Origin: a virus
Strand: one strand, 5' to 3'
Virus record (IMG/VR): IMGVR_UViG_3300032288_001804
Span: 1 to 64,000 of that record
DNA length: 64,000 nucleotides
A program made the translations under genes and the position numbers. The notes under the pieces are model-generated. The model had not been told where the DNA came from, ran no database searches, and was given only the letters and a program-made list of their open reading frames with translations. Each line of letters begins with the position of its first letter. Position 1 is the stretch's first letter. Of this stretch, positions 1 to 13,882 are shown one piece after another.

Positions 1-196
1 GTAACTCCTCTTAATCGTACCAGCTATACTATAATGGTATAGACGAACTTAATGAAACTGTTCTCATCGTATAGGAGATAGGGTTAGCTTTCCCGATGTC
101 ATTTAAAAAGGCAAAATGTGTTGATCCCTTGAGAAAGGATCTAGTTGGTGGGTCATCCAGTTATGACACAACACTGAGGACTTCTCATCCTCAAAT

Positions 197-341
197 AGTC
201 AGGTGGCGGAATGGTAGACGCACCCAAAGTATGTGAGGGAAACATAATTATATAGATAGTTTACTGCCTTAAGGTAGTAAGTCCTGAAAGTTTAAACTTT
301 TAATTGTAAAAGTTATACAGGTTCGAATCCTGTCCTGACTG
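197..341 (+). ncRNA. tRNA-like RNA (Leu-type D arm) with a ~95-nt expanded central domain and no canonical anticodon arm
   Basis: Acceptor stem AGTCAGG(197-203)/CCTGACT(334-340); D arm TGGCGGAATGGTAGACGC; T arm ACAGG-TTCGAAT-CCTGT (317-333); bases 222-316 contain several hairpins. Confidence 0.75.
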
Positions 342-772: not shown

Positions 773-1045
773 ATGAAATTGCACGGAAAAAGAATTCTCA
801 TTGAGAAGCCTGTAAAACCTGAGTCTCAGGTATTATTAACAGCAGAATCTGAAGCTGCTATGGAACAAGAATGGATGAAGAGCTGGACTAAACTTAAAGT
901 ACATGCTACTGGATCTGAATGTACTAATGTACAACCAGGAGATTTGGTATATGTAGGAAACGCGTTAGCTAACTCTGAGATCATTGACATTGAGGGTAGC
1001 TTATACTTTCTTGTTAACGAAGCTGCAGTATGCATAACGTGGTAG
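773..1045 (+). CDS. groES: GroES-like co-chaperonin
   Basis: 90 aa; MKLHGKRILIEK...VHATG...VQPGDLVYV...IEGSLYFLVNE fits the Cpn10 pattern. Confidence 0.75.
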   Translation: MKLHGKRILIEKPVKPESQVLLTAESEAAMEQEWMKSWTKLKVHATGSECTNVQPGDLVYVGNALANSEIIDIEGSLYFLVNEAAVCITW

Positions 1046-1203
1046 ACATATTAAAGGAACTAGCAGTGCAGATGGATAATCTGCGTAACAATAAAACAGT
1101 TCCTTATCTTAACCCCTATAAGGGTATAGATGATTGTGTTGATCTAGTTAACCGCAAAATACGTGAGCTTGAAAGAGAAAAGTCTAATCAAGAAAGTAAC
1201 TAG
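1039..1203 (+). CDS. hypothetical protein (54 aa, not in the ORF track)
   Basis: GTG...TAG, MVDILKELAVQMDNLRNNK...KSNQESN; fills the gap between GroES and the next gene. Confidence 0.5.
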   Translation: MVDILKELAVQMDNLRNNKTVPYLNPYKGIDDCVDLVNRKIRELEREKSNQESN

Positions 1204-1588
1204 AAAACAATTAAAGATTACTGAATCTGGCCGAAGCACGGACTTTATTGCTCCTAGCTTTGGCCACGGTTGTCTTTATAACTGTAGTTACTGTATAACA
1301 CCTGATACATTAATCAGGACCCCTTCTGGTTTAAGAAGGGCGGGAGAAATTCAGGAAGGAGATTCAATAATTTCTTTTTCCCTGGATACCTGGCAATTTG
1401 AAACAGATCTAGTTTCTGCAGTTGGTGAACGGGATACTGATGAACTTTATGTAATCTCAATAGGTTCAAGAACTGTGAATGTAACTGCTGAGCATCCTTT
1501 CTATACAAAGAATAGAGGTTGGGTAGAAGCAAAAGATCTAACTGTAGATGATGAACTGCTTTATGATACTGATGATTTAGACCAATAA
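1163..1588 (+). CDS. spore photoproduct lyase-like radical SAM enzyme, N-terminal part, fused to split intein N-fragment (IntN)
   Basis: SGRSTDFIAPSFGHGCLYNCSY followed by intein block A CITPDTLI (Cys1 at 1292) and block B VTAEHPFY; ends in an acidic tail and a stop; exact start codon uncertain. Confidence 0.9.
   Translation: MSLKEKSLIKKVTRKQLKITESGRSTDFIAPSFGHGCLYNCSYCITPDTLIRTPSGLRRAGEIQEGDSIISFSLDTWQFETDLVSAVGERDTDELYVISIGSRTVNVTAEHPFYTKNRGWVEAKDLTVDDELLYDTDDLDQ
1292..1585 (+). mobile_element. split intein N-fragment (98 aa)
   Basis: C1 nucleophile, TxxH block B, GWVEAKDLTVDD motif; 21 acidic vs 8 basic residues. Confidence 0.9.
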
Positions 1589-2138
1589 TATTATTGGTAT
1601 CATAAACGTCTATGTTTGCTAAAGCACAGAACCACCTAGGTAATATATGGTGGTAGTCAATGTTATCAGTTAAACCTGATAAAGCACATTCTTTAAAGTC
1701 TAACTGCTTTTTAAGTTTTAACCAGCTACCATCTGTGTAATCTGTGCTTGGAGCATTGCCGTGTATATAGTTAGGATTACCCTTACCTTTATACATAGTA
1801 GATATAGTCCTGCCTTGCTGCTTCTTACCAAGACCTTGTATTCTGCAATGAGTACAATAACCGGCACGAGCTTTAGATTTAGGACTTTGTTCACCGCAGG
1901 TTTTACATATGACCCATTTAGTACTAGCAGATGGTAATGTTTTATCAATAGTAAAAAGGCTACCTTCAAACTTCTTCATAGTTCTGAAGTCCTTGTTATA
2001 AAACTTACCAGCTTCTTGAAAGGTTCTAAACATAGGTTTAGTATCTTGGCTAAATAAAGATGTATAATTTTTTTCACAGGTATCATTGCAATAGGTTGTA
2101 TCCTTTTTTGTAATTTTACCACAATATAAACAGTTCAT
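1314..2138 (-). mobile_element. free-standing HNH homing endonuclease, antisense, between and overlapping the intein halves
   Basis: Probable start MNCLYCGK (2138); Zn-ribbon CxxC motifs; NUMOD-like KGKGNPNYIHG; HNH core YHHILP...NNIIGLNHQYHKAVH. Confidence 0.85.
1560..1606 (+). other. RNA hairpin/palindrome at the IntN stop codon
   Basis: 1560-1576 pairs with 1590-1606 (17 bp, three G-U pairs) with the TAA in the loop; a perfect palindrome ACCAATAATATTATTGGT lies at 1581-1598. Confidence 0.65.
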
Positions 2139-3015
2139 GAATCTTGAATTTAAAAAGATAACTTCTATTAATAAGATAAGTAAAAATTCTAAGGTTGTCA
2201 ACTTTTCTGTAAAAAATAATGAGAACTACTTTGCAAATGGTGTGTTAACTCATAACTGTTATATGAAACGCCACCGTCCTACGGGAGTACAGGTGGCAGA
2301 TAATGTAGATGATGTATTAGCTGCTATAACTGAGCACTACGTGGACAATGTTTATTCAGATTGGTATAACCAAAATAAGCCTAATCAAACTGATGACCAT
2401 TATATAACCTATGATATAGGTAGTAATGAAGATCTTGCTTTGCATGCTAAGTACTATGATATAGACCATATTTTTAGAACTACATATGGAAGAAGTCATC
2501 TTAAATTCTCGTTTGCTACTAAGTATGTGAACTATGATTTACCTGATGTTTCTGCTAGTATTAGAATTAGGTTTAGTCTTATGCCGCAGAAGTATTCGGA
2601 TGTGCTAGAGCCCGAGACCAGTTCTATTATAGAAAGGATCCAGGCTATAGATAAGTTTATAGATAAGGGTTATGAGGTCCACATTAACTTTAGCCCTGTT
2701 GTAGTAACAGATACTTGGCTAGATGATTACCGAGATTTGTTTATGCTTGTAGATGAGCATGTTACAAATAAGGATAAAGTAAAGTGTGAGGTTATATTTC
2801 TTACCCATAATGAAAAGAAGCATGCGTATAACCTACTGAATAATATCTCCGGCGAGGATATGCTATGGACTCCTGAGATTCAGGAAGATAAGATATCTGG
2901 TAATGGTGAAAAGAATATTAGGTACAAGCATGTGCTAAAGAGAGAGTATATTAATCAGTTTAAAGCACTGCATGATATACTGATACCTTGGTGTACAATA
3001 CGTTATATTTTCTGA
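2137..3015 (+). CDS. split intein C-fragment (40 aa) fused to the C-terminal part of the spore photoproduct lyase-like radical SAM enzyme
   Basis: VVNFSVKNNENYFANGVLTHN|CYMKRH (blocks F/G, HN then Cys+1 at 2257); SplB-like YDIGSNED, FATKYVN, IRFSLMPQ, VHINFSPV. Confidence 0.9.
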   Translation: MNLEFKKITSINKISKNSKVVNFSVKNNENYFANGVLTHNCYMKRHRPTGVQVADNVDDVLAAITEHYVDNVYSDWYNQNKPNQTDDHYITYDIGSNEDLALHAKYYDIDHIFRTTYGRSHLKFSFATKYVNYDLPDVSASIRIRFSLMPQKYSDVLEPETSSIIERIQAIDKFIDKGYEVHINFSPVVVTDTWLDDYRDLFMLVDEHVTNKDKVKCEVIFLTHNEKKHAYNLLNNISGEDMLWTPEIQEDKISGNGEKNIRYKHVLKREYINQFKALHDILIPWCTIRYIF

Positions 3016-3016
3016 T

Positions 3017-3325
3017 ATGAAAACAAGTTATAGAAACAGGCATGGTGATGTAATCACCTTTGAGAAAAAAGATAATGTAATAGAGATGACTGGTTTTGGT
3101 GAACACTTCCGCTTAGGAGGATGGCCCAGTGAAAAAGGGTTTCCTAACTATAAGTTTTCTATGATAGACCCTAGCGGTGGACCATACATTACTGCGCAAG
3201 CAGAGTGGCATGGTGAAGAGATGAGCGGTACAGATATGGGAGATTTCCTATATGACTGGCAAGGTCTTAAAATAGAATACATTACAGTAGAAGAAGGGTT
3301 AGCTAAATTACATTTATGTCATTGA
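3017..3325 (+). CDS. hypothetical protein
   Basis: ORF in operon; NRHGD and IDPSGGPYI motifs. Confidence 0.7.
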   Translation: MKTSYRNRHGDVITFEKKDNVIEMTGFGEHFRLGGWPSEKGFPNYKFSMIDPSGGPYITAQAEWHGEEMSGTDMGDFLYDWQGLKIEYITVEEGLAKLHLCH

Positions 3326-13055: not shown

Positions 13056-13086
13056 TTGTATGTATGATTATTTTGTTGTATCTTTG
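13056..13086 (+). promoter_or_regulatory. Bacteroidota-type promoter of the HNH gene
   Basis: TTG(13056)-N20-TATCTTTG(13079-13086). Confidence 0.55.
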
Positions 13087-13105
13087 TATTATAAAGGGAT
13101 GCCAC

Positions 13106-13882
13106 ATGAAACATATATTAAAGCAAGGAGAAGTTATAACTGATAAACTTGGACAAGATACCAAACTTATTTATTTAGATGAGGCCGGTTATAAAGGAAA
13201 AGGAATGCGGTACATAAAAGTACAATGCCTTTCCTGTAAAGAAGATCATATAAAACAATATGCTTCAATTAGAGCTGGTTATATATCTACTTGTGGTGCA
13301 AAGTCTTGTAAAGTATCTAACCCATCACTGCATAAAATATCTTATAAACCAGGCCAACTAATACCTAATACAAGTTTTGTATACCTAGAGGAGGACATAC
13401 AGAAAAGTACATCTAATCATAGATACTTTAAAGTACAGTGCTCTTGTGATATTATAACTAGCATTAGAGTAGATAAGTTAAAAGGAACATGTAGAAAATG
13501 TGCTGATAAAAAAAGAAGAGAGTCCTTTACTCAAAAAAATAAAGAGAGTCTAATAAAGAATATTAGGAACTCTTATAAAAAAAATGCTTTACAAAGAGGT
13601 TATAGTTTTGAACTATCTGATAACTACTTTACAGATCTTATCTTTAGTAACTGTTATTATTGTAATGTAACACCTAATAATAAAATAAAAAAAGGTAACA
13701 AGTCAATATGCTATAATGGTGTTGACCGTAAAGATAATAACGATAACTATACAGAAAGCAACTGTGTTCCTTGTTGTGGAAAATGTAATATTATGAAAAA
13801 CAAATGGTCTCATGATGACTTTCTTAGTCACATAACTAAAATTATTAATAACTTTAATACAGAAGAAAATGCATCCGTATGA
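13106..13882 (+). mobile_element. HNH homing endonuclease
   Basis: Two Y.KVQC Zn-ribbon repeats; CYYC...NGVDRKDNNDNYTESNCVPCCGKCNIMK; probable start MKHILK. Confidence 0.85.

Follow-up and report, generated by a model that had tools for sequence, protein, structure and literature searches.

An antisense HNH nuclease gene and a putative split intein form a 965-nt cassette in a phage radical SAM gene

How could a single enzyme be produced from a gene that is broken within its metal-binding motif, and what does the DNA between the two pieces encode? These questions are raised by a locus near the start of IMG/VR virus record IMGVR_UViG_3300032288_001804, the source of which we read as a crAss-like phage. 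The stretch analyzed here, hereafter called the window, is the first 64 kb (64,000 nt) of this 96-kb record, and it contains a gene of the SPL family of radical S-adenosylmethionine (SAM) enzymes divided between two open reading frames (ORFs), with an intein half at each broken end. Between them, on the opposite strand, lies a gene for what we call an HNH homing endonuclease. We estimate a probability of about 0.8, based on comparison of sequences, that these elements constitute a selfish cassette that homed into the SPL-family gene and that the halves of the gene product are joined by protein trans-splicing. The parts of the locus, in window coordinates, are as follows.

1163-1588, plus strand: N-half ORF, consisting of a GTG start, a 43-amino-acid (aa) N-extein, a 98-aa N-terminal intein half (IntN) and a TAA stop
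1163-1291, plus strand: N-extein of the SPL-family radical SAM gene, 43 aa, ending in GCLYNCSY and containing Cys ligands 1 and 2
1292-2256: whole mobile cassette, 965 nt, comprising IntN, the antisense HNH gene and the C-terminal intein half (IntC)
1292-1588, plus strand: IntN, 98 aa plus TAA (CITPDT..VTAEHPF..DDLDQ), containing Cys1 and block B (VTAEHPF)
1314-2138, minus strand: putative HNH homing-endonuclease gene, 274 codons plus stop, with its ATG at 2138 and its stop at 1314-1316
1314-1588, both strands: dual-coding overlap, 275 nt, corresponding to IntN codons ~9-98 (plus) and HNH residues ~184-274 (minus)
2136-2139, both strands: CATG, in which the divergent start codons of the HNH gene (minus) and IntC (plus) overlap
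2137-3015, plus strand: C-half ORF, consisting of the 40-aa IntC followed by a 252-aa C-extein (CYMKRH..)
2137-2256, plus strand: IntC, 40 aa (MNLEFKK..NGVLTHN), with its own ATG
2257-3015, plus strand: C-extein, 252 aa plus stop, the first residue of which (Cys+1) is the third cluster ligand

An earlier note on this DNA had placed the gene halves in ORFs beginning at 1163 and 2137, in different frames and about 550 nt apart, and its coordinates, sequences and frame assignment are correct (1163 mod 3 = 2, 2137 mod 3 = 1; gap, 548 nt). The note gave the size of the gap but passed over its content, which is the minus-strand HNH gene that overlaps both intein halves. Its central proposal, that a naturally split intein interrupts a radical SAM gene, holds: IntN and IntC are located on separate ORFs with the break between blocks B and F, their motifs are conserved, and we found 30 other split loci.

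Alignment with intein-less relatives locates the insertion to the nucleotide. By blastn, six intein-less viral loci (L001-L004, L007 and L008) are 94% identical to the window up to position 1297 and 84-88% identical from position 2255, and the breaks in the alignments at these two positions indicate a clean 965-nt insertion at 1292-2256. The empty site is the same as the flanks of the window over 11-26 nt on the 3' side and at least 31 nt on the 5' side (L001, L003, L004 and L007). Intein-less 295-aa alleles are also present in a large protein collection (P0003, P0004 and P0009), with N-termini that match the N-extein of the window and a junction that reads ..GCLYNCSYCYMKRH.., and across the insertion site the intein-less alleles read ..CLYNCSYCYMKRH.., such that the insertion is precise and in frame. 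The N-extein is 100% identical to the N-terminus of the alleles in all six viral loci and in P0003/P0004. The product of splicing is predicted to be 295 aa long with the junction peptide CLYNCSYCYMKR, and the sequence C-L-Y-N-C-S-Y-C, foreseen in the earlier note as the outcome of splicing, is present in identical form in the intein-less alleles of close relatives. The insertion lies directly before the third Cys codon of the CX3CX2C motif, confirming that the +1 Cys of the intein is the third ligand. The search that the note had recommended, for alleles that either lack the intein or contain a contiguous one, recovered both kinds (P0003/P0004/P0009 and P0121, respectively).

Within the C-extein, 14 mismatches with the intein-less relatives are clustered at window positions 2307-2366 (+51 to +110 past the junction), whereas other 60-nt stretches of the gene contain 1-8. 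This cluster could be a co-conversion tract or just a variable loop.

Three trivial explanations for the broken gene were considered and rejected. An assembly error is ruled out by the 30 independent split viral loci and by a C-half from another assembly that is 99% identical (P0002). Joining at the RNA level is disfavored by an Rfam search of positions 900-3300, which gave no match at E values up to 1, and by the intein motifs, which abut the junction exactly. Finally, crAss-like phages can recode TAG or TGA (PMC7886860), but IntN terminates in TAA in most loci, the window included, and additional in-frame stops lie downstream of it.

The two intein halves are recognizable by sequence. IntN matches the Pfam PT-HINT family (E = 1.3e-10; 42 bits, cut-off 27.7) and a bacterial intein-like (BIL) domain (2lwy, E = 1.2e-11), and IntC weakly matches Intein_splicing (PF14890, E = 3.3e-4) and the gp41-1 intein (6qaz). 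A count of charged residues gives a net charge of -13 for IntN (8 Lys + Arg, 21 Asp + Glu) and +4 for IntC, bearing out the N-negative, C-positive complementarity that had been claimed. Cys1, T.EH, the THN or HN terminus and Cys+1 are invariant across 24 distinct sequences, and IntN is 98 aa long with the same stop position in 27 of the 29 other viral loci that hold a complete IntN. The closest solved split intein by sequence is NrdJ-1 (8ubs and 9omb; E = 2.6e-7 for 8ubs), which aligns in the block B region (..T.DHP.YTKNRG.V.A.ELT.DDEL..) and is similar to the cassette intein in size and charge polarity; the alignment covers just the C-terminal third of IntN, however, and the host and the insertion site differ. 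NrdJ-1 also has Ser at +1. In block F it has the canonical Asp and His, as do Npu DnaE and gp41-1. The F block of the window (VVNFSV..NENY, within 2185-2256) has Asn and Glu and lacks the canonical Asp and His, and in distant members of the family and in the contiguous P0121 the block is VYNFHV or VYNFNV with (Y/P)E(N/S)Y. Because these substitutions are conserved family-wide, the atypical F block is probably functional. From the conserved catalytic residues, together with the purifying selection on the exteins described below, we infer that the halves are active in trans-splicing.

An alternative is that the intein halves do not splice but act as association domains, such that the enzyme would be a non-covalent heterodimer; the fragmented NrdA of phage Aeh1 has been described in such terms (PMC3045599). 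The dissimilarity of the F-block residues to those of well-studied split inteins is in favor of this possibility, as is the fact that the N-half alone (window 1271-1294) already reads CLYNCSYC before splicing, with Cys1 of the intein at the position of the third ligand. However, Cys1, T.EH, the penultimate His, the terminal Asn and Cys+1 are invariant even in distant members and in those that interrupt a different host enzyme, conservation of the unusual F-block residues across the family speaks against decay, and a 138-aa HINT domain held in the cluster-binding loop would probably block the binding of SAM. We consider a heterodimer of this kind improbable.

The protein encoded in the gap contains two Cys4 zinc ribbons, an HNH core at residues ~160-197 (motif DYHH..NNIIGLNHQYHKAVHH) and a helical tail. 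A search of 1.8 billion representative proteins identified 43 homologue clusters, most of which span residues 2-270 at 32-46% identity, and H163, H164, N183, H192 and H196, as well as the four Cys residues of the second ribbon (C78, C81, C95 and C98), are invariant among 18 homologues with 30-46% identity. The His/Asn/His residues typical of a beta-beta-alpha-metal nuclease are therefore present, and an AlphaFold2 (AF2) model (mean predicted local distance difference test score, pLDDT, of 79; 82-91 at residues 190-230) places strands at residues 160-164 and 184-188 and a helix at 189-197. The best fold matches of the model are the phage HNH nucleases 5h0o (GVE2 HNH, Z = 6.3) and 9qgx (T5 SciA, Z = 5.8), followed by Cap5, McrA and the HNH domains of IscB and Cas9; a Foldseek search of the PDB returned nothing at an E value of 0.001 or better. 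The cassette nuclease resembles 5h0o and 9qgx in the beta-beta-alpha-metal core (model residues ~119-234), but identity is 11-16%, and the cassette protein is extended by two zinc ribbons at its N-terminus and by a conserved C-terminal tail, the coding sequence of which is antisense to IntN. Motifs and model together lead us to call the gene an HNH homing-endonuclease gene, with the evidence from fold comparison being modest.

The overlapping CATG start codons are retained in 28 of 30 viral split loci in addition to the window. The other two (L015 and L016) have TATG, and their nuclease ORFs lack the usual ATG, with ATA as first codon. In nearly all loci the antisense frame remains open for 29 further codons into IntC, and it is thus possible that the nuclease starts upstream.

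The overlap between the nuclease gene and IntN, which encodes the last strand and the helix of the HNH core plus the tail, is dual coding under selection in both frames, and not an accident. Three results establish this. First, no indels are present in the 965-nt cassette among the 30 sequences in which this stretch is complete (24 distinct). Second, when we swapped IntN codons synonymously in seven sequences according to the codon usage of the phage, the antisense frame acquired 5-6 stops on average and was open in at most 0.25% of trials, whereas none of the seven natural sequences has a stop there; the frame is open in 29 of 29 loci with a complete overlap and in the available part of one more (L032). 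Third, third-position diversity of IntN within the overlap is 0.079 (24 distinct sequences), compared with 0.46 for the nine IntN codons outside it, 0.27 for IntC and 0.31 for the region that encodes the nuclease only. In the codon register of the overlap, position 3 of IntN is position 2 of the nuclease and position 2 of IntN is position 3 of the nuclease, so no site is silent in both frames, and this register is the same in distant members. The IntN frame is validated independently by its similarity to the BIL domain 2lwy and to NrdJ-1 (8ubs). The dimensions of the element vary little: of 29 complete viral loci, 28 have a gap of 548 nt (the exception, L019, has 539 nt and an IntN of 101 aa), and the length of the nuclease ORF in complete viral loci ranges from 273 to 276 codons.

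At the IntN stop codon (window ~1581-1598) there is an 18-bp perfect palindrome, which corresponds to the codons ACC AAT AAT ATT ATT GGT and to nuclease residues T-N-N-I-I-G. Because this run of codons is self-complementary by nature, no separate function needs to be invoked.

The distribution of the cassette is that of a mobile element. Among 44 viral loci, 31 are split and 13 are intein-less. The 120 nearest protein clusters include 70 that start with IntC and 39 that lack the intein (38 by pattern and P0102 by eye); with ~60% of these homologue clusters carrying it, the cassette is not rare. The exteins of the window are 86-93% identical to intein-less alleles but just 49-60% identical to other split alleles, while its intein and nuclease are 64-80% identical to those of other split loci. 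In a tree of C-exteins the window is the sole split member of a clade of eight (100/100 support), the other seven being intein-less, and the tree as a whole requires 3-4 gains or losses. Across split loci, mean amino acid identity is 82% for the intein, 78% for the HNH protein and 66% for the exteins, and third-position diversity is 0.27-0.31 for the cassette (IntC and the HNH-only region) versus 0.48 for the exteins. Identities of cassette and extein are correlated (r = 0.62), indicating that inheritance has to a large extent been vertical. Close relatives differ in whether the cassette is present at this one exact site, and this polymorphism, combined with an intact homing nuclease, points to a selfish mobile element. 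In the 96-kb record itself, an own-genome search found one cassette and no second copy.

It is very unlikely that the gene was merely disrupted by a mobile HNH insertion and is now a pseudogene that yields no functional SPL-family protein, since, although SPL-family genes are dispensable in some relatives, both halves are open in thirty loci with ~50% extein divergence, the cassette is without indels, and the exteins of split alleles show the codon pattern of purifying selection (diversity of 0.28, 0.19 and 0.48 at positions 1, 2 and 3), which argues against a dead gene.

The Phage GenBank collection gave no match by blastn or by tblastn with the HNH region and one weak hit by tblastn with the C-extein; searches for loci related to P0125 and P0127 found none, and that for P0122 found just an already-known contig. 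A single scan of bacterial and archaeal genomes found no relative. In two loci (L029:2020-2127 and L035:235-306), part of an N-extein-like sequence is present a second time, ~500-800 nt upstream of the real N-half (71-81% identity over 24-36 aa), and may be a remnant of earlier recombination.

Using distant homologues of the nuclease as queries, we found additional loci with this layout, in which the nuclease gene is antisense in the same register and the overlap measures 245-311 nt. In L048, L053 and L061 the interrupted genes are other SPL forms, and L063 is another, with its N-half off the locus. In L062 and in L056 (with L060), the host is a different enzyme that matches the NCBIfam AmmeMemoRadiSam radical SAM family, with the N-half covering profile positions 7-86 and the C-half positions 84-282. 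The junction in the AmmeMemoRadiSam-like gene, GCSLKCVF|C...HN|CENWQIS, is again at the third Cys of CX3CX2C. The L056 cassette (L056:3061-3756 and L060:895-1629, both on the minus strand) splits its host gene in a 548-kb phage, in which the nuclease is frameshifted and the interval between the halves includes a 362-aa gene and two small ORFs; judging from this layout, trans-splicing there would span ~2.5 kb. P0121, a distant SPL of 517 aa, is interrupted at the same position by a mini-intein that is contiguous (..GCAMACVY|CVASG..IVTHN|CYVARR..), and the split point of the window intein aligns with ..ILCYN/TQSELEYRKI.. of this protein. The existence of this contiguous form is consistent with the origin suggested by Dassa et al., in which a nuclease gene inserts into a mini-intein.

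The model that we favor begins with a 965-nt selfish cassette that would have homed into the SPL-family gene directly before the codon for the third cluster Cys. In this proposal, an HNH gene with the opposite orientation interrupts a mini-intein at the canonical endonuclease-insertion loop, and the two together make up the cassette. Expression of the SPL-family gene would yield two polypeptides, N-extein-IntN and IntC-C-extein, and the acidic IntN and basic IntC would associate into a HINT fold and trans-splice to give the 295-aa enzyme. Only then would Cys+1 of the C-extein join the other two ligands of CLYNCSYC. The HNH protein, expressed from the minus strand, would cut intein-less alleles during co-infection, with repair copying the cassette into them, and the ~90 codons read on both strands would tie the fates of intein and nuclease together, presumably to the benefit of the element.

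Several results weigh against this model. The assignment of the nuclease draws on motifs, on a single weak PHROG hit (PHROG 8048, HNH endonuclease, at 1e-4) and on modest Z scores (HNH nucleases occupy nine of the top 11 VIA-align rows, at Z 3.8-6.3), Pfam and NCBIfam scans of the protein gave no HNH hit, and the AF2 model is of low confidence at residues 240-274. The atypical F block, with its Asn and Glu, may mean that the chemistry or the rate of splicing differs. The lower synonymous divergence of the cassette could in part be due to extra constraints and not to horizontal transfer. Finally, a search for promoter patterns of the Bacteroides and sigma-70 types and for terminators found none above chance for the C-half or the HNH gene.

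We tentatively extend the model, at somewhat worse than even odds, to a cassette that is an obligately interlocked selfish unit, that targets the third-Cys codon across non-orthologous radical SAM enzymes, that represents a new and diverse Cys1/Cys+1 trans-splicing family and that is possibly restrained at Cys1 by the cluster. Because the end of the nuclease core and the tail are encoded antisense over IntN, neither partner could decay or be deleted harmlessly, and such a unit would thereby escape the cycle of nuclease degeneration.

The spliced sequence CLYNCSYC and matches to the Pfam SPL family (PF20903; E = 1.3e-13 to 1.8e-13 and 51 bits for the C-half, 71 bits for intein-less P0004, cut-off 27) place the enzyme among SPL-family radical SAM proteins. 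P0004 scores 287 bits on TIGR03886, 'SPL family protein', below the cut-off of 438, and 64.5 bits on TIGR04070, the true-SPL model, with a cut-off of 400, so the UV-repair function attached to this gene in the earlier note is not upheld. The note had also suggested a redox- or metal-gated switch, in which splicing would be controlled by the iron-sulfur or redox state and the cassette would have been co-opted for regulation. Such gating would take advantage of the fact that Cys1 completes CX3CX2C in the unspliced N-half, where a bound cluster or metal, or a Cys1-Cys+1 disulfide, could restrain splicing, and the use of the same site in two radical SAM families is in agreement with it. Inteins generally insert at conserved active-site motifs, however, for example beside the thiyl-radical site of ribonucleotide reductase, and close relatives thrive without the cassette, as would rather be expected of a selfish element. 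The variable presence of the cassette in near-identical phages and its intact homing nuclease likewise point to selfishness, and we regard a regulatory switch as unlikely.

How does the cassette compare with known systems? Dassa et al. (2009) described 26 fractured loci, the hosts being gp41, IMPDH, DnaE, NrdA, NrdJ, ligase and terminase. There, the three ORFs share a strand, co-directional overlaps measure 6-69 bp, and the nucleases belong to the GIY-YIG or Vsr-like types (PMC2677866). As in those loci, a phage enzyme gene is broken into N-extein-IntN and IntC-C-extein at the canonical endonuclease-insertion loop, with a nuclease gene between the parts. Unlike those loci, the free-standing nuclease gene is on the opposite strand, is of the HNH type and overlaps IntN by ~275 nt and the start codon of IntC, and the hosts are radical SAM enzymes. 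The cassette is thus a real and widespread variant on the fractured genes reported by Dassa et al. (2009), one that is apparently undescribed, and host, nuclease type, antisense orientation and long dual-coding overlap are its new features, the antisense, overprinting nuclease gene being more unusual than the split intein. Forty-eight inteins have been reported in actinobacterial SplB (COG1533), none of which is stated to be split (Novikova et al. 2016, PMC4760082); their hosts are likewise radical SAM enzymes of the SPL/photolyase type. Introns and inteins are known to be numerous in crAss-like phages (Yutin et al. 2021, PMC7886860), and the main text of that study makes no mention of the cassette. 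In the full-text literature that we searched, with most subscription journals outside the search, no split intein is described in a radical SAM or spore photoproduct lyase gene or together with an antisense HNH gene, which agrees with the earlier view that this type of host is new for split inteins.

These data extend fractured genes to radical SAM enzymes and bring to light an intein family that appears to home to a metal-ligand codon common to unrelated enzymes. Long dual coding is rarely as clean as in this antisense overlap of ~275 nt, which is selected in both frames, with its register kept in distant members, and which suggests a route by which nuclease and intein could become mutually dependent. 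Candidate pairs for orthogonal protein ligation are available in the naturally occurring IntN(98)/IntC(40) variants, which number in the dozens and have a Cys+1 junction. Annotators of crAss-like phages should treat the two 'SPL' fragments and the 'hypothetical' antisense ORF as a single gene and a mobile element.

ARAGORN found no tRNA or tmRNA in the whole window, including positions 197-341 and 412-528, which had been described as tRNA-like shells. A second HNH-like ORF of 272 aa is located at 13064-13882 on the plus strand and is no relative of the cassette nuclease, which had one match in the own-genome search. The minus strand contains a block of giant ORFs (1492-3326 aa), and relatives of the window come from gut, rumen and environmental viromes.

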